A stretch of 64,000 nt of DNA from a virus: positions 22,325-86,324 of IMG/VR virus record IMGVR_UViG_3300031823_000003. The stretch is one strand, 5' to 3'. Both the position numbers and the translations under genes were made by a program. Positions within the stretch are counted from its first letter, which is position 1; the number at the start of each line of letters is the position of its first letter. Of this stretch, positions 37,228 to 49,214 are shown one piece after another. The notes under the pieces are model-generated. The model worked only from the letters and a program-made list of their open reading frames with translations, searched no databases and was not told where the DNA came from.

Positions 37228-39105
37228 CTATTTTTTATGCTGTCCTTTGCCTGTGGCGGCGGCATTCAAAGCCCCTAGAGCCAGTTTTATTTTTGCCTCT
37301 TCGATCAACTCTTCCCGATTACGTTTGAAATCAAAGTTGGGATCTAACCTTCTCATCAACTCTTGACTGCTAATATCTCCCTGTTTCCGCAGAGCCATTG
37401 CAATCGGAATCTTATTCTCGCGCTGAATCGCCAGCGTCGAATCGGGACGGATCACGAATGAGTACCTGCGCACAAATTCCTCTGGCTTCATGCCGGAGTC
37501 TCTGTTCCATGCCTGCCCATACAATGGCCGATAGTCGCTCATGCTGATGCCGCGTGCGCCGAGTATTGCTACTCTGTGAGCAACTGAGTAAAACTGCAAC
37601 ATGTCGGCCACGCCCATAGAGCCGACTTCTTCGACAAAACTAGTAAGCGCGCGCGACTGAATCCTAATCGGAAGAGACCGCGATGACAGGATCATCTCCA
37701 GCGCGTCGCCACCGGGGACCTGTTTCTTGTTCAATGCCTGTCCGATCGCGCTGGCACCGGATGACATGTCCAGTTCCTTACTGATGAGATCGATGGACTG
37801 CATCGCCGGAGCGAATGGAAATTCAGCGCGTTTGGCGAACTCGGGTGCTTTCGGCGCATTGTTGTTGTAGGCGATCTTTCCGCCAGCCGCTCCCGGATCG
37901 AGAGACTCCCAATCTCCTTTGGGAAATGCTCCCTTGGGTCCGATCAGGGTAGGCTCATTGATCGAATACAGACTATCCAGTGAGCCTCCCAATATTTTGT
38001 TGATGACTTGGTTCATCTGCACCCAGCTACGAACACTGCTGTCTCCCGACATCTTCCAAGGCAGGCGATACGGACGGTAGACGGGAAATGGTTTGCGGGC
38101 GTGCCAGTACGGATTGCACTGATCTTCTAACAGTGCTCCACCGGCGGTGCACATGACTCGGCCACGCGGATATAGTCGTTCGCCGGGTTCCACGCGATAA
38201 GCCCAGTTGACCAGCGGTTCCCCGCTGCTGTCGGACGGGCCGACGGTAACTGTATATGACCTGTCGTTGGTACTATCATCATTGAGCCAATATTCTTTTA
38301 GCAGCGCAATAGGATATGGATTATCGCTGCCCGCTGATGAGCGCACGCCTAACTTTTTTCGGAGAGTTTGACTCATCCCCGCCCACGATGCTGCGCTGAT
38401 ACTAGATGGGCGGTTGAAATTACCGCTGAGCGCGGAACCAAAGTCAGCGTCACATTCGACCCGCTCAGCGGTCTTGCCAAATCTACGGATCAAATGGTCT
38501 TTGGTAACCGCGTGATAATAAATTATGCACTCAGCGTCCTGAGGGTCGCCGCCGCATCCGAGTGTCGCCCACTGCCACGGTGCGATAGGAACGAGTTGTA
38601 CATCACCCATGCCGCCGTTCAGGGATGAGTTCCATTGCAACTTGGCAGGCCCGGTATGCAGGAGTCCATACAGTACGCAGTCGTAGGTACGATCCTCGAA
38701 GTAGTTTTTTTCAGCCCAATGCACACACAGAGCATTGAGGATATCCTCGAACTCGGAATGCTGGCCTTCGTGGTCGAAGGATTTGATCTGGAAATCCAGA
38801 GCGAGATCAGTAAGCAAGGAGACGGATTCGTAGAAGTGGCGGCGGGCTTTATTCAGGACGGGCTTGTTCCTGGCAAACCGGGACTTTTCCGCCCACTGGC
38901 GGCCATCGAAGATGAACTCGACGAGACGGAGCGTATCCCTGATTTCCTTTTCGTAATCCGGGTCTTGGGTGGCGGTCTCAAAAAGTTTATCGGTGAACTC
39001 GATGACCTGGCGCTCTAGAAGTAGTGCCTGACCGGGAGAGAGACGCGGCGCGGGAGGAGTCTCGGTGATGACCGGAGTGGTAGGCGCGATAGTCGTGGCA
39101 GCCAC
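37228..39105 (-). CDS. Portal protein (P22-like size and position)
   Basis: 625 aa between terminase and scaffold; FDGRQW, KPVLNK, NPYWH.RKPFPVY motifs. Confidence 0.85.
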   Translation of the reverse strand: MAATTIAPTTPVITETPPAPRLSPGQALLLERQVIEFTDKLFETATQDPDYEKEIRDTLRLVEFIFDGRQWAEKSRFARNKPVLNKARRHFYESVSLLTDLALDFQIKSFDHEGQHSEFEDILNALCVHWAEKNYFEDRTYDCVLYGLLHTGPAKLQWNSSLNGGMGDVQLVPIAPWQWATLGCGGDPQDAECIIYYHAVTKDHLIRRFGKTAERVECDADFGSALSGNFNRPSSISAASWAGMSQTLRKKLGVRSSAGSDNPYPIALLKEYWLNDDSTNDRSYTVTVGPSDSSGEPLVNWAYRVEPGERLYPRGRVMCTAGGALLEDQCNPYWHARKPFPVYRPYRLPWKMSGDSSVRSWVQMNQVINKILGGSLDSLYSINEPTLIGPKGAFPKGDWESLDPGAAGGKIAYNNNAPKAPEFAKRAEFPFAPAMQSIDLISKELDMSSGASAIGQALNKKQVPGGDALEMILSSRSLPIRIQSRALTSFVEEVGSMGVADMLQFYSVAHRVAILGARGISMSDYRPLYGQAWNRDSGMKPEEFVRRYSFVIRPDSTLAIQRENKIPIAMALRKQGDISSQELMRRLDPNFDFKRNREELIEEAKIKLALGALNAAATGKGQHKK

Positions 39106-39146: not shown

Positions 39147-39656
39147 CTATTGCTGACCAACTCCAGCGGCGCGGAACACGGATTCATATTTCTCGATCTG
39201 TGCGCGGAGCTGCCTGTTCTCGGCCTCGGTATTATCTATGGCTTCGAGAGCGGCGACAATCTGAGCACCGTTGTTCAGACCGCGTTTCTTTAATTTATCA
39301 ACGTCAGGGCCGCTCATAATGAGCACGCTGCCATCGGCAAGTGAAGACAGCAGTACGTCCGTTGTGGCAATGAGCCTGCCCCGGTACTTGGTTTCTAGTA
39401 TTTGTTTTACGCGCGGGTGCAGCCATACGGTCATTTTTACGGATGTGACCGGAGGCTGCTCGTTCAGCGGCATGGGGATCATTCTTGCGCCCCGCGCCAC
39501 GGCTTCGGCGACTGACGAATACTGATGCGAAAATGGACATTTACAGATATGCATATCGCGGATGAGCGGCACATTGGGAGTACCGTTGGCATCACACATC
39601 GGGCAGTAAAGCTGGGCTTGGGACTGGTCAATAGGTGGGATTAGGTTAGTCGCCAT
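39147..39656 (-). CDS. Hypothetical zinc-binding protein with coiled-coil C-terminus
   Basis: CPMC..CKCPFSH. Confidence 0.6.
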   Translation of the reverse strand: MATNLIPPIDQSQAQLYCPMCDANGTPNVPLIRDMHICKCPFSHQYSSVAEAVARGARMIPMPLNEQPPVTSVKMTVWLHPRVKQILETKYRGRLIATTDVLLSSLADGSVLIMSGPDVDKLKKRGLNNGAQIVAALEAIDNTEAENRQLRAQIEKYESVFRAAGVGQQ

Positions 39657-40044
39657 GATGCGCGGATACCTCCTGTGTCGATCTCAGCATTGCGTATGCG
39701 AACTCGCCGCGATTCAGCTTGAAATTAAGATAACATTTATTGGCTGTGACACTCTCTACGAACGGGATGAATATGTCCACACCATCATCGGTTGTGACTT
39801 CACTCAGGCTGCCCAATATCAAAGCGGCTATTTGTGCCGGTGAACGTTTCAGTAATTTAGCCAGCTTCATTGCAATCGTGGACGACAGGTCAGCGTCAAC
39901 ACCAGCGGACTTACCAATGAATACCAGCGGCACACCCTCGTCGTCCGGCAGATCAGCCAAGTGTTCAGGGAACTTGTGATACATCGCCGCCATCACCGCA
40001 TAACGGATGCCGGATATAGCGATAGTCAGCGGATCGGTAATCAT
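39646..40044 (-). CDS. Stand-alone arginyl-tRNA synthetase N-terminal domain-like protein
   Basis: ADLSSTIAMKLAKLLKRSPAQIAALI..VESVTANKCYLNFKL matches the ArgRS N-domain pattern; no catalytic domain. Confidence 0.75.
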   Translation of the reverse strand: MITDPLTIAISGIRYAVMAAMYHKFPEHLADLPDDEGVPLVFIGKSAGVDADLSSTIAMKLAKLLKRSPAQIAALILGSLSEVTTDDGVDIFIPFVESVTANKCYLNFKLNRGEFAYAMLRSTQEVSAHHGD

Positions 40045-40379
40045 TATTTCCCCTTACCCTTCCGCTTCTGCATCAGATCGTTCCACTCGTTTATCTCATC
40101 GGCGGACCAGTCGGGCGCTAAGTTTGACCACATGAAAACGCAATCACACCAGATGAACGAGGCATAACCCAAAGCAGCAATCTCTGGAATAAATTCCATT
40201 GTTCTATCATGTGTTTGAAGTGATGCCCAGACACGCTCGTAATCAGGACGAGATAAGGTAATCACCTTGTGCGATTGACCATTAACGGTGACTATAGATG
40301 GTACGCCATCGTTTGGAGGATATACCTTGTAGATAGCTTCATGCAGGAAGCTGACCGTGTCTACGGCTCTCACAGTCAT
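40044..40379 (-). CDS. Hypothetical protein
   Basis: 111 aa, coupled to the terminase stop. Confidence 0.55.
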   Translation of the reverse strand: MTVRAVDTVSFLHEAIYKVYPPNDGVPSIVTVNGQSHKVITLSRPDYERVWASLQTHDRTMEFIPEIAALGYASFIWCDCVFMWSNLAPDWSADEINEWNDLMQKRKGKGK

Positions 40380-42610
40380 TCATCCTCCGCGCTATCACCA
40401 CCCGTGCTCACGAACTCTCCCATCTCTCCCGGTGTCCGCCCGCCGTTCTTCCGGTACATCTCTTGGTATGCGTGCACCAGATCAGGGTGCATCTGCTTGG
40501 GTTCGACACCATGATCGGCGTACAATTCGTGCTCAGGACCGGAGCCTTTGTCCCAGATAGGCGACCAGACTGTGTTGGCTCGTGTGACCGGTATCCCGCG
40601 CACCGTCCACGGCAGTTTCATTTTATGCTTGAGTTCAAGATCGGCGATAACCTTTTTTCCCGCGTCCTCGGTGGCGCATTGATCCACTAGCACCCCGTGT
40701 ATGTTATATATGCCCCAAACTGTAGGCGTACTGGGCATGAGAGTGGCGCGGTCGCCACGGGCGGCCAAGTGTTCTTCCGCCCAGTTAGCGCCGCCTTTAC
40801 CAGCCTGATGAGAAGCGGCAATAGCGATACAGGCACTCATTACCATGTCGTCGTTGTTGCTGATACCCTCGGCGCGTCCTTCCCCCTCGTATCGACCGAA
40901 GTCCCGCATTTCTGATATTGTGTGTTTATCCCGAATGACGATCGTGTTGTCGAGTAACGCTTCGGACATCCGGTTAATCATGTCTTCGCGGGTGCGGTAT
41001 GTAGTCATCCAGTGCAGATGTAGAGTTGATTGTCCACTAACCTTATCGAGATGCTTCCATCTATACAAGTTTGGAAAATCCAGCGGCCCCTTGAGTTCAT
41101 CGCCGGTGGTCACTCCCGCCTGCTGGTACTCGACTGCGACTTCCGCTGTGTGATACCAGTACCCAAGCGCGGCTATCACGCGGGCGAAATGGGACGGGTT
41201 GATCTTGCCGTGCCAGTTGGCGACTTGAACCCAAGATTCTTTGCCGAATCCCAAACGGAACACATCACAAGATGAGAAATCCTTAGCGGTACCTGATGCG
41301 GCATCTACGGCTATGTAATATTCGGTAGACGTGTCGAGATCGTCGGGAAATTCCCATATCCATAGGCGGTTGATGTTATCCGGTTTTTCGAGCAGTTCCT
41401 CCGGCAGCGGCGGGTGCAGATGCAATATCGGCATCGCCTCCGGACCTGCGTACTCCAGTTCGCCGATCTGGATAGGGTCTTTACAATTGGATTTTTCCTG
41501 TTCGGCCAGACACATGCGTGGGAACGCGCACAGGCCGGAAGATATAAACGCCTCGCCGGGAGTGGATGGGTATGACTCTTGGTATTTGTACAGCCCTTCC
41601 ATTGAGCGGGCATTGTTGATATAGGCTTTAATCTTACGGCGCTGCCAGTTGAAGAATCCAAGAGGAATGGAAAATTTTTCGGTGGACTTGACCTTTTCCC
41701 GGAATGTTCTCTCCTCAGCAGTGAGCGTAAATCCCGATCCCTTGCGTATCGGCAGGAAATACTTTCGCACTTTATATACCGGGATGAACACTGGCGTCCA
41801 TTCTTCATCATCACCCTTTTCGGCGGCGATCCACTTGGCATAGAAAATTCCCTGTCGCCCATATGCAGTGGACTCCATGATGGCCTGCATGTCGCGGGCA
41901 TTCATGGATGGCTCGATATCGGCGGTCCACATGTCGTCATCGGGCCAACGTGACGCTTCTGAAAAATGTGCTCTGGAAATCGTCTGGCCGATCGCAACGC
42001 CTGCTTGTTCCTGGCTGTTGGCAATGACCAAAGTGCTGTTCAGTCCGGGGTCGGCCATGCGCTTAGCAACATCGCTGCGCTGGAACACGAAGCGGTCCTC
42101 TTGGACCTTTGATTCCATCTCCGGGCGCATCCACCACGGCAGATCGTTGTAGGCGTTCCAGATTCGGCGGTAAAGTTCGGCGGTGGTCTTGCGGGACTGC
42201 GCCATCATCAAGGTGTAGGCGCGTTCACTGAATATAGTTGCTTGAAATATGACCGCGCCGGAGAATGCAGTGCCGCCCATCTGCCGGGGCTTGAGGATAA
42301 TTAGGCGATAGCAGCCATCCTCAGACCATTTGCGTTCGATGACTCCTAAGATTTCCTCCTGATGTTGCCAGAGCGGGTACATAGACTGAGCATTGCCGTG
42401 CTCGTCCCGGATGATGAAGTAGTTTTCGAGAAAATATCTGCGGTCGAAGGTGGCGTGCTCGATCTCGTGGTCAATGAAATCCGAGTAGGATTTGTCGTCG
42501 GAGACCAGTTCCCATGCGCGGTCGAAATCGGATAGGGCGTCAGTAACGAAGAGTTCATCGAGGGCTTCGATAGCGTCATTGAGCGTGTTATCGCGGCGAG
42601 GAATGTACAT
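40376..42610 (-). CDS. terL: Terminase large subunit
   Basis: Walker A LKPRQMGGT, Walker B AHFSE, MESTAYG coupling motif, nuclease IAVDAASG..DFS and NDDMVMS. Confidence 0.92.
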   Translation of the reverse strand: MYIPRRDNTLNDAIEALDELFVTDALSDFDRAWELVSDDKSYSDFIDHEIEHATFDRRYFLENYFIIRDEHGNAQSMYPLWQHQEEILGVIERKWSEDGCYRLIILKPRQMGGTAFSGAVIFQATIFSERAYTLMMAQSRKTTAELYRRIWNAYNDLPWWMRPEMESKVQEDRFVFQRSDVAKRMADPGLNSTLVIANSQEQAGVAIGQTISRAHFSEASRWPDDDMWTADIEPSMNARDMQAIMESTAYGRQGIFYAKWIAAEKGDDEEWTPVFIPVYKVRKYFLPIRKGSGFTLTAEERTFREKVKSTEKFSIPLGFFNWQRRKIKAYINNARSMEGLYKYQESYPSTPGEAFISSGLCAFPRMCLAEQEKSNCKDPIQIGELEYAGPEAMPILHLHPPLPEELLEKPDNINRLWIWEFPDDLDTSTEYYIAVDAASGTAKDFSSCDVFRLGFGKESWVQVANWHGKINPSHFARVIAALGYWYHTAEVAVEYQQAGVTTGDELKGPLDFPNLYRWKHLDKVSGQSTLHLHWMTTYRTREDMINRMSEALLDNTIVIRDKHTISEMRDFGRYEGEGRAEGISNNDDMVMSACIAIAASHQAGKGGANWAEEHLAARGDRATLMPSTPTVWGIYNIHGVLVDQCATEDAGKKVIADLELKHKMKLPWTVRGIPVTRANTVWSPIWDKGSGPEHELYADHGVEPKQMHPDLVHAYQEMYRKNGGRTPGEMGEFVSTGGDSAEDE

Positions 42611-42624
42611 GACAAGTCAACTAG

Positions 42625-43134
42625 TCATAATTGCAACACCTGCGACCCCGTATGCACGTTGCATAGTGGCACCTCTACAAAATCGGGAGAGTGCCGCACG
42701 AACACAAAATGCCTAACAGCATATCGAGCACTCTCAGTCGGCGTGCGATGGGTCACCAGCATTGCGTAGAAAAAATCGGTATTGTGGCTCGGGCTGTTTA
42801 CGCACTTGCGGTAGGTATCACAATCCCCTTGTGATAATGTGCGTAGACCATTGACGTGATGCGTGTGCCAGTTACCAAGGTGCTCAATAGATGGGTATTT
42901 CCTCTCTACCGCTCGAAACACGCTCTCCTGATACTCGCCGTCTTGAAATAAGCTAACGCGAGTCCGCTTGGCATTCGGGCCAGCGGCAATCAGCGCCTTA
43001 ACGTCGATATGCGGATCGGTGCCGTGCCAAGTATAAAACCCGAGCAGCCGACCGCCTATCTCTTCGGCGGAGTAACGGTCGCACTCGTCGAATATACCGT
43101 GCAGGATCGGCTGCGGGATGGAGATAGTCAGCAC
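42625..43134 (-). CDS. Stand-alone JAB/JAMM (Mov34/MPN) metallo-isopeptidase
   Basis: EIGGRLLG ... LGNWHTHH...LSQGD gives a complete E..HxH..SxxD JAMM motif. Confidence 0.88.
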   Translation of the reverse strand: MLTISIPQPILHGIFDECDRYSAEEIGGRLLGFYTWHGTDPHIDVKALIAAGPNAKRTRVSLFQDGEYQESVFRAVERKYPSIEHLGNWHTHHVNGLRTLSQGDCDTYRKCVNSPSHNTDFFYAMLVTHRTPTESARYAVRHFVFVRHSPDFVEVPLCNVHTGSQVLQL

Positions 43135-43140
43135 AGTTGT

Positions 43141-43575
43141 TCAGACGGTCTTTCCGTTGTTAATCCCATTCAGAGCAGCGTACTCGGACGCCCTGCGCAG
43201 AAGCATACTCATCTGATTTCTTAAATCGCTCTGCAATTCCTCGTTAACGTATTCTTCATCGGTATGCAGCCAGAACAGCATAGGCTTTCCACGTTCCTGC
43301 GTGACAGGCTGCACCTCTATCCACACATGGCCGGGATCGAGAGATAAGCATCGGAAATAACCCTCGCTGGATTTACCGACGGCATCGGCGATCTCGTTTA
43401 CTCTCTGCTGCTGTTCTTCCGTCATGGACTTTATAGCCTTAGAGATGACAAACCACGCCACAGGACAGGTGGATTTATCGAGACAGTCGTGGGCTGCGAT
43501 CAGCGGGGAGTCGTGGATAGCGAATAGTAATAAGTCCATGAAATTGACTTTGGTAGTGACGTACTCTTTATGCAT
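43141..43575 (-). CDS. Hypothetical protein
   Basis: AAGGAG RBS before MHKEYV. Confidence 0.6.
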   Translation of the reverse strand: MHKEYVTTKVNFMDLLLFAIHDSPLIAAHDCLDKSTCPVAWFVISKAIKSMTEEQQQRVNEIADAVGKSSEGYFRCLSLDPGHVWIEVQPVTQERGKPMLFWLHTDEEYVNEELQSDLRNQMSMLLRRASEYAALNGINNGKTV

Positions 43576-43577
43576 GG

Positions 43578-44402
43578 TTACTCCTTGGATAGCGCTTCCG
43601 GTGAGTACGCCCATCCGCCATAGCGGACGCGGTTCCGCATCACACTTTCGCTCATAGCCATTGCCGCTTTGAATGCGGTGTCATACGGGCCAGTCAGCGA
43701 AGATGTGGAGTACTCCCCGCAATCCCATGCATTTTCGCCCTTGCCGGGAAACGGAATCGGTGTATCCGGGGTGATCGTCGATCGCGTCATTCGCCGCCAC
43801 ATCCACGGCCAGCGCGGACGCCGCCATGTGCTCTCGAATATTTCTACGGTCGAAGCGTACCCGCCTTCCGGCATGGGAACGATGACGCGCTCGGTAGATA
43901 ATCTAGTTTCCGAGTAAACGGATCGCCCGAATACCGCGTCCACAGGGCAGATCGAAATATGCCACCACTTGGGATCGGCGCTGCGCGATTCCATTGGGTC
44001 GTTCCAGAGATTGACCCACAGGCAGTCATCGTGCCACGTGATGCCGATCTGGCGGCCATTGGTAGACCAGTATGATCCCTTGCTGACATTGCCAACGCCG
44101 TCGCGGATTTCGTACTCACGCGGCGCGGAGTCACGGGAAGTAATGCGCTCCATCAGTCGGCGCAGCGGACGGTATTTCATACCCCAATAAAATGCGGCGA
44201 ACCCGATACCGATGTGACCGCCAATCGCATCTTCGTCATAGTCGGCGAGAGATAGTTCAGCGCCGATAGTGGACCGCTTGAATAGTGTCCACTCGAAGTG
44301 CCATCCGACCTCAGCAAATTCCAGCCAGCAGCGGCCATGCCGGAGCATGGACCCGGTACGGTTGTGGGAGCGTTCGTTCAAGTTCTGGGAATGAAATCGC
44401 AT
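43578..44402 (-). CDS. Trp-rich hypothetical protein
   Basis: 274 aa with GGAGG RBS. Confidence 0.7.
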   Translation of the reverse strand: MRFHSQNLNERSHNRTGSMLRHGRCWLEFAEVGWHFEWTLFKRSTIGAELSLADYDEDAIGGHIGIGFAAFYWGMKYRPLRRLMERITSRDSAPREYEIRDGVGNVSKGSYWSTNGRQIGITWHDDCLWVNLWNDPMESRSADPKWWHISICPVDAVFGRSVYSETRLSTERVIVPMPEGGYASTVEIFESTWRRPRWPWMWRRMTRSTITPDTPIPFPGKGENAWDCGEYSTSSLTGPYDTAFKAAMAMSESVMRNRVRYGGWAYSPEALSKE

Positions 44403-44658
44403 TGCCTATTCCTCCTTTTAACCGCCGAGAGATTATTACTTCAAGCGTATCGCACCAGTCCGTCATATTCAGAGCGCACTGATATACGACGTCACTGTCC
44501 GAATACGATGAGGCCCGTTCACGGATGACATCCAAGTATTGCTTATGGCCTTCCCCCTTAGAGGTGGATGTCAGCCTGTCCATCAGACCGCTTATTCTGG
44601 CAATCAAAGAGATAACTTTTATGCGAATATCATTACGTTCATTCATCGTCTGAGTCAT
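44311..44658 (-). CDS. Hypothetical protein
   Basis: GGAGG RBS before MTQTMNER; 3' end overlaps the next gene. Confidence 0.45.
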   Translation of the reverse strand: MTQTMNERNDIRIKVISLIARISGLMDRLTSTSKGEGHKQYLDVIRERASSYSDSDVVYQCALNMTDWCDTLEVIISRRLKGGIGNAISFPELERTLPQPYRVHAPAWPLLAGIC

Positions 44659-45331
44659 CGGTTTCCTCCGCAATATCGGGATCGTCCAACTCAACATCAT
44701 CAATCTCCCCCTCTAATACTTCCTCACTCTCTTCTCCCACCTCTACCTCTTCTGCATCCGCCACTGCTACTGCGCCCCGGCGCTCCGCCGCTGCCCGCCG
44801 CCGGGCTTCAAAACTCCTGCCCCCGCCGATGACATTATTCTGGGTGTTCGAGTTATTGATCGCCGTGTTGATCTGCACACCGGCGGAAGTAGGCCGGATA
44901 CTCTTAAGCAGCGACGGCAGGGTCTTGATGGCTTCGAGACGCATCCCGTGATCGGGTTCGGTGAGCGGCATGCCTTGGGCATCGGTCACTACTCCGCCGC
45001 TGGTAATCAGAGTGCGTTCCGCGCGCATCGCGTCATGGAGCACAGTCCGCAACTGTCCCCGGCGGACGGACATTAACACTTCTTCGTTGATCGCCAGATC
45101 GACGGCTTCATGGGAGAGCGAGGCATTATGCATCTGCACGCGGACGATGGCGTCGTTCACTTGGTCGATCGACAGGTGGAGTTTGGCGGCGATCTCATCC
45201 GGTGACTTTTGGAGTACCAGTAGCCGCCATGCTACGCGGTCCAGGTTGGACGGCCTGCTATGGCGTCCGGTCCGGGTTATCAAAGAATGCGCCGGAGGCG
45301 GCGATTGAGCCTGTGGCTGTGCTGGTGACAT
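44639..45331 (-). CDS. Probable terminase small subunit
   Basis: HTH (SPDEIAAKLHLSIDQV), DHGMRLEAIK helix, acidic tail; upstream of terL. Start inferred at MSPAQP. Confidence 0.55.
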   Translation of the reverse strand: MSPAQPQAQSPPPAHSLITRTGRHSRPSNLDRVAWRLLVLQKSPDEIAAKLHLSIDQVNDAIVRVQMHNASLSHEAVDLAINEEVLMSVRRGQLRTVLHDAMRAERTLITSGGVVTDAQGMPLTEPDHGMRLEAIKTLPSLLKSIRPTSAGVQINTAINNSNTQNNVIGGGRSFEARRRAAAERRGAVAVADAEEVEVGEESEEVLEGEIDDVELDDPDIAEETDDSDDE

Positions 45332-45827
45332 CTCGGGATTCGTCGGCGATGACGGAGGAGTCGTCAATGGCGGTGCGGGAACGAGATACCCAATGCCCGT
45401 CTCCGGGATCGGATACTGCATATCCGTCGGGGGTGACTTCTGTAACAGAGGTGTATCCCCTGACTCCTTCGGCAAGCCACTGCTGTGTGAAGGTTCCGAC
45501 CGCAGTGGCAGCTCGTTCGATTCTCTGGGCTGCGATCCGTTCTTCCTTGACGAGCTGGACGAGCTGCGCGACCGCTTCCCCGATTTGGCGTCCGTTGATG
45601 CTTTTGATCTGGGCATCGAATTGTGTCCTGTGCAGGTCCAGCATAGTACGGAATTCAGCGAGAGCGTTAGCCCATTGATCGCGGTGCTCGGCGAGAGTGG
45701 TAGAGGTGGACTGGACTATCCGGCGAAAGGAGAGACCGACGTAGACCAGCCACGCTGATGTACCGATGAGCAGGGCGATGAACAGTCCGGCGATCAGGGA
45801 GAGAGCGACGATGCCGACGACGCTCAA
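45258..45827 (-). CDS. Single-pass membrane protein with coiled coil
   Basis: N-terminal hydrophobic helix; 189 aa. Confidence 0.6.
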   Translation of the reverse strand: MSVVGIVALSLIAGLFIALLIGTSAWLVYVGLSFRRIVQSTSTTLAEHRDQWANALAEFRTMLDLHRTQFDAQIKSINGRQIGEAVAQLVQLVKEERIAAQRIERAATAVGTFTQQWLAEGVRGYTSVTEVTPDGYAVSDPGDGHWVSRSRTAIDDSSVIADESRDVTSTATGSIAASGAFFDNPDRTP

Positions 45828-47330: not shown

Positions 47331-49214
47331 TCATAGGAATAATGTTTCCCGGTTGGCCGCGATCCCGTCTCTGGACACTAACGCTAACTGTGCCCGCTTG
47401 AGATCGCTGAGATACGCCGAGGCGGTGCCGGACTTCTCCAGCTTGGATTCCTCGAACAGTTGTTCACGGGTAACCAGTTCGCCGCCGTGAGCGATCAGAC
47501 GGTCGAGCATGCGGCGCGCTCCCTCGCGCAGTTTCGGTCCCCAGATCGCTAGCACATCCTCGGTAGACTGGGGAGCATCGGGAATATGGCCGCCGAAGTA
47601 GTCGATCCCGGTCTGGGTAGCGAACAGGTCGCCGCCGCGCTTCTCGATGTATCCGCCACGAAACAAGTCCGATTTGTACGCAGAGTACGTGCCAGACTTC
47701 TTGAGTCCGGCGTGCGACCGTAACCGCCCATCAGGCATACCTCCCGGATGGAACTGACACAGCGCGGATAACATACGCTCGGCACCGTCGCGGAGCTTAG
47801 GATGATCGCCGTTATTGCTAATGGTAGTTCGCTGCGCTGACGCTGACGCTGACGGTCGTTCTGACCGTTGCGGCGACACAATACGCACCGTTACCGGATC
47901 GTTGCGTGTGATGTTGACGTTCAGTTCGACATCTTCGCCAGCCATTAGCTGCTCTAATTTTGCCAGCACTGTTTCAGCATTGCGCTTGAGCTTGTCGAAC
48001 TCCTGGCTACGGCTCGTAATAGCGGACTCAGCGATAGACGCGATCTGCACGGATGCCCTGTCCAGTATGGACTTGACCTCATCGGCGGACACAGATGCAT
48101 TGTCGAACCCGAATGCTTTGACGTTGGTGATGATTTTTATAGCTAGTCCTAGAGCGGCGTGCAGGCGCTTGATGAGCGCGCGGTCGGCGGCAGAGGATTT
48201 CTCGACTACTCTTTCTTTCCCTTTACCGGACGCCACCGCTTTGATCTCTTTTTGCAACCGTGATATCTCTGCTCTCAGTGTCCGGGGATCGTCTTCTTTG
48301 GCTTTCTGGATCGTCTCGGACAGTCTCTCTTTCAACTTATCTAAATCCACTTCGGCCAGCTTATGCGCTATCTTAGGGCGTTCCCCGGCTTTAGGGGTAG
48401 CTGAACTATCGAATGTTTCCCGTTCCCGGATATGGACTCGTTTGAATATATCCAGCCATTCCGGGGACCAGACCCAAGTGTCACCCTTGCCGAGTGATGC
48501 CAAGGCCCCGAAGAACTCGTCGGCTTTGCCCTTGATATCGTGGCCCTCGACCCACGCCTCCTTGACGGATTTCCGGTCCAGTTTATGCAGAAGACGATGG
48601 CAGATCAGAGTCTCGATCTGGCTTAGTGTGTCCTTGTTGATGACCTGCGGACGCTGACTGATGAGAACGACACCGAGTCCGCAATTTCGATCGCGGCGAA
48701 CCAGACGGTCATATGCCCCAAACATCCGCTCGTGCCCCTTGGGGATGCGCTGCGGCACTACTTCGTCGGCTTCGTCCAAGTACAAACAGAGAGGTGTCCT
48801 GTTCTCCGGCTTACCCTTGAGATGATGCAGGCGCTCGCCGAACTCCATGGCGAATCGCCGCTGATCGTTCATGGACAGGTGCCGGAGGGAGAACACGACA
48901 CTCGCGCCCGTCTCTACAACGAAGTCCGCCATGATGGTACCGTGTGTTCCCTCTAGTGGCAGGTCACCGTTGGGTCCACCGAACATATACACCTTGAATC
49001 CTGCGGACTTGCCGTCGCGCGAGGACCGGATGCCGTACCACGCATTCGTTGGATCTATGGCTACGCATTGCTGGCCGTGCTTGAGCATCTCCTCCATCAT
49101 CACGACAGCAGTATTGGTTTTGCCTGAGCCGCGTATACCGAGAATGGCAAAGGTCTGGGTGACGGCATCCAGAGGAAGTGACAGATTGCCAGCGATGCGC
49201 AGTTGTCTACTCAT
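47331..49214 (-). CDS. HerA/FtsK-family (DUF87-like) P-loop ATPase with C-terminal winged-helix-like repeats
   Basis: GIRGSGKT, AIDP, LYLDEAD, LISQRP motifs. Confidence 0.85.
   Translation of the reverse strand: MSRQLRIAGNLSLPLDAVTQTFAILGIRGSGKTNTAVVMMEEMLKHGQQCVAIDPTNAWYGIRSSRDGKSAGFKVYMFGGPNGDLPLEGTHGTIMADFVVETGASVVFSLRHLSMNDQRRFAMEFGERLHHLKGKPENRTPLCLYLDEADEVVPQRIPKGHERMFGAYDRLVRRDRNCGLGVVLISQRPQVINKDTLSQIETLICHRLLHKLDRKSVKEAWVEGHDIKGKADEFFGALASLGKGDTWVWSPEWLDIFKRVHIRERETFDSSATPKAGERPKIAHKLAEVDLDKLKERLSETIQKAKEDDPRTLRAEISRLQKEIKAVASGKGKERVVEKSSAADRALIKRLHAALGLAIKIITNVKAFGFDNASVSADEVKSILDRASVQIASIAESAITSRSQEFDKLKRNAETVLAKLEQLMAGEDVELNVNITRNDPVTVRIVSPQRSERPSASASAQRTTISNNGDHPKLRDGAERMLSALCQFHPGGMPDGRLRSHAGLKKSGTYSAYKSDLFRGGYIEKRGGDLFATQTGIDYFGGHIPDAPQSTEDVLAIWGPKLREGARRMLDRLIAHGGELVTREQLFEESKLEKSGTASAYLSDLKRAQLALVSRDGIAANRETLFL

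Follow-up and report, generated by a model that had tools for sequence, protein, structure and literature searches.

A stand-alone phage JAB isopeptidase related to the deconjugase of a bacterial LGGEY-tag E1/E2 cassette: a candidate counter-defence enzyme

Described JAB systems and the JAB protein of the window

Bacterial ubiquitin-like conjugation systems, among them type II CBASS (signalling against phages that is based on cyclic oligonucleotides), Bil, Bub and 6A-MBL, form a young field, in which it is already known that JAB deconjugases exist and act negatively in CBASS. Here we describe the gene of a stand-alone JAB/JAMM isopeptidase in a phage genome, located within a window of 64,000 bp (bases 22325-86324 of the 86,324-bp IMG/VR virus record IMGVR_UViG_3300031823_000003, which is classed as linear and 84% complete and is present in two soil metagenome runs). 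We found that its cellular relatives sit in a cassette of a small tag, two E2-type enzymes, an E1, a JAB and a metallo-beta-lactamase-fold protein (MBL), in some loci followed by a patatin. Our favoured reading, to which we give a rough probability of 0.58 on comparative and modelling grounds, is that the phage protein corresponds to the catalytic domain of the cassette's deconjugase and would strip the tag of a host cassette, disarming a presumed anti-phage system.

According to published accounts, wild-type Cap3, the JAB of type II CBASS, counteracts CBASS when over-expressed, while its dead mutant does not, and Cap3 is highly specific for the tail of its own CD-NTase (cGAS/DncV-like nucleotidyltransferase; 10.1101/2022.03.31.486616). 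The JABs of Bil and Bub are needed to mature the precursors of their ubiquitin-like proteins (Ubls). The operon type 6a that Iyer, Burroughs and Aravind described in 2006, now called 6A-MBL, combines an E2-E1-JAB fusion with an MBL, and later papers list it as phage defence. Lambda-type phages use a JAB together with a Ubl in tail assembly (PMC1779556), and the Hör et al. preprint speculates that deubiquitinase domains of phage tail-assembly proteins counter Bil. This speculation is the nearest precedent, as in the literature searched no phage enzyme is shown to reverse bacterial Ubl-like conjugation and no stand-alone phage JAB is described as counter-defence.

The gene and its catalytic residues lie in the window as follows.

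42625..43134, minus strand: stand-alone JAB/MPN zinc isopeptidase, 169 aa, GTG start
43060..43062, minus strand: codon of E25, the catalytic glutamate (AEEIGG), invariant in 103/103 aligned sequences and in contact with the tag C-terminus in the structure predicted jointly for the JAB and the cassette tag (co-fold)
42823..42867, minus strand: codons of the zinc-binding JAMM motif, H90-T-H92-H93 ... S101-Q-G-D104 with x8 spacing; H90, H92, S101 and D104 invariant, and H90, S101 and D104 in the predicted tag interface

The original prediction of a stand-alone JAB with a full JAMM motif and no NlpC/P60 fusion was borne out. The protein aligns with its homologues from residue 1-2, E25, H90, H92, S101 and D104 are all present and invariant across the 103 aligned family members, 20 short forms included, and both the Pfam scan and the AlphaFold2 model reveal a single 169-aa domain with no NlpC/P60 part. 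Its zinc motif has the spacing HxH-x8-S-xx-D, which is one residue longer than the canonical x7 of lambda K and is common to all family members. The sequence and the model thus argue that the gene encodes a JAB/JAMM zinc isopeptidase with intact catalytic residues, which is predicted to be active.

Among profile searches, a hidden Markov model (HMM) built from 61 cassette JABs recognised the protein at 252 bits (E 7.8e-76). The Pfam matches to JAB and Prok-JAB are weak (E 0.01 and 0.02) and do not reach the gathering cut-offs (16.1 vs 22.5 and 15.2 vs 25 bits); a viral relative in locus L002 passes the PF01398 cut-off at 24.8. Regarding RadC, these two families are the only ones that Pfam reports for the protein, and BFVD entries of RadC appear only at E > 0.05; PHROG holds no family for it. 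From an alignment of 103 homologues, AlphaFold2 gave a model with a mean predicted local distance difference test (pLDDT) score of 96.7, and Foldseek returned 240 PDB matches at E <= 0.001 with the JAB/MPN fold, led by Rpn11-type deubiquitinases. The top matches are 6fnn and 6fno (query-normalised TM-score, TMq, 0.68-0.70), then Rpn11, AMSH and BRCC36. The protein shares its catalytic residues with the archaeal and eukaryotic Rpn11/AMSH/CSN5 deubiquitinases, but identities among the listed fold matches are only 10-20%, and a search of solved structures by sequence gave nothing below E 0.17.

The cellular cassette and its tag

A HMMER search of the full library with the JAB yielded 639 cluster representatives at E <= 0.001, most of them 300-350 aa long, in which an N-terminal JAB is followed by a C-terminal extension that carries no annotation. 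Upon scanning one genome per species, we obtained 133 relatives that span many bacterial phyla and one archaeal metagenome-assembled genome; 80 of the 133 were kept as loci and 70 of these gave a JAB ORF, the other ten, in which the simple ORF (open reading frame) caller found none, being dropped. The window JAB is 45-55% identical to the cassette JABs over the whole JAB domain, and the two share the signatures ETGG, DGEYQE..FR..E, HLGNWHTHH and LS.GD. The model of the long form consists of the JAB, a disordered linker at 194-200 and a separate alpha/beta C-terminal domain; unlike it, the window JAB has neither the linker nor the C-terminal domain of about 120 aa, ends at residue 169 and is encoded by a virus.

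The surroundings of the cellular JABs are highly regular. A ThiF-type E1 stands immediately upstream of the JAB in 66/70 loci and an MBL-fold gene immediately downstream in 59/70, whereas E2-type genes occupy position -2 in 55/70 and position -3 in 36/70; these counts rest on position and spot checks, as fused genes caused single-linkage clustering to join the JAB to the MBL and the E1 to the patatin. The cassette families are a UQ_con/E2 protein, a second E2-like protein whose N-terminus resembles Phd/YefM, the ThiF E1, the JAB with its C-terminal domain and a ComEC-like MBL. Both E2-type paralogues (positions -3 and -2) keep a Cys at the expected catalytic place, in 100% and 98% of rows, respectively.

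A tag of about 57 aa ending in ...KPLTM(R/K)E(D/N)LGGEY was found in 42 of the 56 loci examined (tag end LGGE[YF]). The Y is the last residue in fifteen of these tags and is followed by another 2-12 residues in 27, and processing is therefore part of the system. The tag is near-invariant across phyla (LPNGE.R ... KP.TM.E.LGGEY, for example L007:8031-8204), with variable tails of 0-12 residues after the Tyr. Since the conserved block ends in Tyr, conservation runs two residues past the Gly-Gly.

The cassette is a split relative of operon type 6a, or 6A-MBL. As in 6A-MBL, E1, E2 and JAB are combined with an MBL enzyme, and the cassette MBL matches NF058524 weakly; unlike in 6A-MBL, the enzymes are separate proteins accompanied by a small tag and a second E2, and all scores are below cut-off. 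The window JAB aligns with the 6A-MBL model NF058523 (Cap2_3) through its JAB part alone (E 4e-7, 28.8 vs 320 bits), and the phage has the JAB alone. No description of the split LGGEY-tag cassette was found in the literature searched, a search that did not extend to supplements, which possibly hold operon tables. Patatin-like phospholipases often follow the cassette (five proteins in four sampled loci, L013, L018, L029 and L020), the plasmid NZ_CP080523.1 (RefSeq) of the cultured Mesorhizobium sp. AR10 carries the whole set including the patatin, and at least one cassette locus adjoins an AbiO/Nhi-like helicase gene. Directly downstream of its split cassette, locus L029 also encodes a 739-aa protein in which E2, E1 and JAB are fused (L029:6452-8671; Prok-E2_A, ThiF, Prok-JAB), accompanied by a patatin gene, so that two conjugation systems stand side by side there.

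Partners of this kind are missing from the phage. HMMs of the cassette E1, the two E2 types, the MBL and the C-terminal domain gave no match in the 86,324-bp record at E <= 10, and the tag HMM gave none either (E <= 100 listed, best E 1.3), nor is there any tag-like motif. The record thus has no Ubl, E1 or E2 partner by the cassette HMMs, as the original prediction had held for the window, the Ubl part of this statement resting on the cassette-tag HMM, with no ORF-wide search aimed at beta-grasp Ubls in general.

We modelled the window JAB together with a cassette tag from another organism and zinc, each protein with its own, unpaired alignment. The co-fold reached a score of 0.86 against 0.01 for the best control, on a calibration that holds roughly for self-made alignments and an added zinc, in which cross-organism pairs are seldom represented and in which the mark is reached by 58/80 solved complexes and 2/110 mismatched pairs. 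At least 90% of contacts recur between runs, with a partner pLDDT of at least 69. In the model, tag residues 53-57 (LGGEY) touch E25, H90, S101 and D104 of the JAB, and the invariant LPNGEIR segment of the tag pairs with JAB strand 46-50. The predicted complex is therefore consistent with, and lends support to, binding of the cassette tag by the phage JAB.

These results bear on the targets named in the original prediction, in which the enzyme was a deconjugase aimed at type II CBASS, reversing CD-NTase conjugates, or at Bil, reversing Ubl conjugation to phage structural proteins (tail proteins). Like Cap3, the window JAB is small (about 150-170 aa) and stands alone, and the two share their fold and an HTH-type zinc motif, the Cap3 of the Cap3:CD-NTase structure 9ild_A being matched at TMq 0.57 and 21% identity. 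The PADLOC JAB models, which we take to be CBASS models, match the 169-aa protein at E 1e-11, TIGR02256 (VC0181 family) at E 7e-8 and NF050170 (Cap3) at E 5.6e-4, and the speculation of Hör et al. would fit a Bil target. The curated cut-offs are nevertheless missed widely (20.2 vs 200 bits for NF050170 and 32.4 vs 127.6 for TIGR02256), the relatives at 45-55% identity all lie in the tag-E2-E2-E1-JAB-MBL cassette, and the likely substrate is its 57-aa tag, which the co-fold places in the JAB active site, rather than a CD-NTase tail, for which Cap3 is reported to be so specific. As for the Cap3 partners, Cap2 (E1-E2) and a CD-NTase, neither lies nearby: the neighbours of the gene are the terminase large subunit (TerL) and ORFs of no known role, and the cassette HMMs detect no E1 or E2 in the record, no profile search having been aimed at the CD-NTase. 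The cassette HMMs likewise show no partner of the BilA, BilB or BilD kind. From sequence comparisons made on the Cap3 side, we consider a CBASS or Bil target distinctly unlikely. The general part of the earlier claim, an enzyme directed against Ubl-like defence, fared better, as the protein appears by sequence to be kin to the deconjugases of bacterial E1/E2 systems and a mobile accessory gene, whereas its named targets give way to a different cassette with a tag of its own.

The presumed defence and its proposed reversal

The cassette is presumed to be an anti-phage defence by its likeness to parts of 6A-MBL and CBASS and by its effector-like neighbours. Under the favoured reading, the phage would make the deconjugase alone, without tag, E1, E2, MBL or C-terminal domain. 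The enzyme would bind the tag of the host cassette through the conserved LPNGEIR and LGGEY segments and would cut it from whatever the host E1 and E2 had attached it to, or would cut tag intermediates (tag-enzyme linkages). A conjugation step needed by the cassette would thereby be undone and the presumed defence disarmed, a mode of action that may be likened to over-produced Cap3 switching off type II CBASS. Loss of the C-terminal domain may free the phage enzyme from the host's own control. We infer that conjugation is required for cassette defence and that the phage JAB cleaves conjugates in vivo.

Several points weigh against this interpretation. The whole case is comparative and computational, and the defence role assigned to the cassette draws on a likeness to 6A-MBL and CBASS below curated cut-offs together with the effector-like neighbours. 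That a cassette is present in the host of this phage is an assumption. The co-folded tag is from another organism and the alignments are unpaired, and the predicted tag interface is not more cassette-like than the rest of the protein (0.58 vs 0.56, p-value 0.27; 0.45 vs 0.51, p-value 0.84, in an earlier version with a broader set), a result that we count as neutral to slightly negative for tag binding. Many anti-defence genes are early, and the JAB gene stands in a long co-directional array beside packaging genes; its late expression is an assumption. The phage JAB could in principle also help conjugation, by analogy with the JABs of Bil and Bub that mature their tag.

The last point leads to an explanation in which the JAB does act on the cassette tag but the benefit is not counter-defence, either since the cassette serves something other than defence (for example stress or conflict between elements) or since the JAB matures the tag. 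No paper on the cassette was found in the literature searched, maturation of Ubl precursors by JABs is reported for Bil and Bub, and 27 of the 42 tags carry 2-12 residues past LGGEY. The cassette however has MBL and patatin genes of effector type, as in 6A-MBL and CBASS, is distributed patchily across many phyla, is also carried by a plasmid, adjoins an AbiO/Nhi-like helicase gene in at least one locus, and has in 6A-MBL a relative that later papers list as phage defence. We regard a benefit other than counter-defence as unlikely.

Should de-tagging of a host cassette prove correct, the phage gene would mark the LGGEY-tag cassette as an anti-phage system, and the protein would be the first anti-defence protein to act by reversal of ubiquitin-like conjugation. 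A lone phage JAB at about 50% identity to one cassette suggests a concrete enzyme-substrate pair, the phage JAB and the LGGEY tag, and would provide independent, virus-side evidence that the cassette matters in infection. The absence of the C-terminal domain from the phage copy suggests that this domain serves the host enzyme for regulation or docking.

Phage copies of the JAB and the terminase neighbourhood

Besides the window JAB, five IMG/VR homologues with a delimitable JAB ORF are stand-alone proteins of 163-179 aa, one of them of 242 with a repeat N-terminus, and in a sixth (L004) the JAB is cut by the contig end. In the ORF with the repeats (L003:6346-7074), some 70 residues of KV/RV/MV repeats come ahead of the JAB; the start was probably placed falsely upstream, over a DNA repeat. 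Of the cassette HMMs, that of the JAB alone finds a match in the six viral loci (none for E1, E2s, MBL, C-terminal domain or tag). When examining 80 metagenome loci, we find 5 short JABs without C-terminal domain, E1, E2, MBL or tag, the other 75 being of cassette type; the latter include three JAB frames cut by a contig end (L115, L141 and L157), each with E1 and E2, and some lie on short contigs with part of the cassette visible. A protein search of 50,697 GenBank phage records with the JAB gave no match at E <= 1e-3, and the DNA stretch from JAB to TerL matched no GenBank phage.

The short JABs of L001, L089, L090 and L091 are 64-79% identical to the window JAB, and these loci have no other detectable gene in common with this phage; their JABs are surrounded by small ORFs, primase, FtsK-like or PAPS (phosphoadenosine phosphosulphate) reductase-like genes. 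TerL and portal flank the JAB of L002, whereas that of L003 adjoins an SbcCD-like nuclease. In two unrelated loci with a short JAB, a PAPS-reductase-like gene (phrog_424; L089:1930-2730 and L105:1292-2146) follows downstream at a distance of up to about 1.2 kb, and in L091 the short JAB and an FtsK/SpoIIIE-like gene (phrog_1358, E 2e-69) are 0.8 kb apart.

The genes around the window JAB can be compared with L088, a true relative of this phage with a TerL and a portal 57% and 55% identical to those of the window, respectively.

40376..42610, minus strand: TerL, 744 aa, ATG start; PHROG phrog_24361 and phrog_6681, E 3e-12; the 57% identity is to the L088 TerL
43141..43614, minus strand: 157-aa ORF with no assigned function; no match in Pfam, PHROG, PADLOC or NCBIfam; absent from L088
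43578..44402, minus strand: 274-aa ORF, phrog_20814 (function unknown), PHROG E 1.4e-27; absent from L088
44639..45616, minus strand: 325-aa protein, 26% identical over 190 aa to L088:3-620 (pairwise E 0.002)
37228..39105, minus strand: portal protein, 625 aa; PHROG phrog_1216 and phrog_156, Pfam SU10_portal below cut-off; the 55% identity is to the L088 portal

The gene lies directly upstream of the terminase, as originally noted, with 14 nt between the JAB stop and the TerL start and 6 nt between the end of the upstream ORF and the JAB start. In L088 (L088:1-2936) the counterpart of the 325-aa gene stands directly before TerL, and the JAB is missing there together with the two ORFs found ahead of it in the window; the three window genes at 42625-44402 therefore look like an insertion. 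The terminase neighbourhood of the JAB recurs but is not conserved among its closest homologues. Because close homologues share the JAB alone with the window phage and L088 has no JAB, the gene contents and sequence comparisons argue that the JAB is a mobile accessory gene and not a packaging component. Like phage anti-defence genes in general, it is a phage-encoded homologue of a host system component and variably present.

The position of the gene could also speak for a morphogenetic or self-processing protease that acts with the adjoining packaging and head genes, as the JAB precedes TerL so closely here and lies between TerL and portal in L002, and as lambda-type phages are reported to use a JAB and a Ubl in tail assembly. 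Against this, the closest homologues lie among small non-structural genes (near primase, SbcCD-like nuclease or PAPS-reductase-like genes), the L088 relative with its related TerL and portal has no JAB, and the 86-kb record holds no tag-like motif or tag homologue. Lambda K and the window JAB have in common a phage-encoded JAMM motif and no likeness beyond it (BLASTP E 14; hhalign probability 1.1% over 17 columns). K joins its JAB to NlpC/P60 and works with the Ubl-like protein I, whereas here there is no NlpC/P60, no tail-module context and a spacing of x8 against the x7 of K. A check for clustering with tail-assembly JABs thus agreed with the earlier statement that lambda K does not fit, and a morphogenetic role is very unlikely.

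In a tree rooted on divergent long forms, the window JAB falls in a clade of 18 short forms (Shimodaira-Hasegawa-like approximate likelihood ratio test, SH-aLRT, 90) among the cassette JABs. The quick tree separates a second viral clade, whereas the likelihood improved when all 23 short or viral rows were forced into a single clade (approximately unbiased test, p-AU 0.90), and we therefore claim neither several captures nor a direction of transfer. L086 is not in the tree, as its HGHH variant was missed by the motif filter. We put at even odds the wider statement that phages took over the catalytic domain alone from a host deconjugase and use it as a de-tagging counter-defence against a widespread, undescribed LGGEY-tag E1/E2 cassette.

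The JAB gene could also be a recent capture that has no role in the phage, or its product could be silent in catalysis and bind the tag or E1/E2 as a decoy, and the lack of the C-terminal domain that all cellular relatives possess would fit such a remnant. Yet all catalytic residues are retained throughout the clade of 18 short forms (56-80% identity) and the gene is spread among unrelated phages, from which we argue for selection on an active enzyme. We give hardly any credence to a silent remnant or decoy, and the enzyme is accordingly still read as an active deconjugase of the cassette tag.

Regarding the remaining neighbours, the 325-aa protein at 44639..45616 has no family match in Pfam or PHROG and is possibly a small terminase or DNA-binding protein, to judge from its L088 counterpart directly before TerL. 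An Atlas search with the 274-aa neighbour (43578..44402) gave nothing usable, and a promoter and terminator scan returned fewer sites than in shuffled sequences. Between TerL and portal, a 132-aa ORF (39646-40044, minus strand) matches the arginyl-tRNA synthetase N-terminal domain PF03485 at 31.6 bits against a cut-off of 21.5. The adjacent 111-aa ORF (40044-40379, minus strand) shows a weak 28-residue match to the ATG5 helical-bundle region (20.7 vs 21.3 bits), which is probably due to chance, though curious beside a JAB. Finally, 4 kb upstream of the JAB, a 627-aa HerA/FtsK-like ATPase is encoded at 47331-49214 on the minus strand (PADLOC HerA E 2e-18, phrog_2666).

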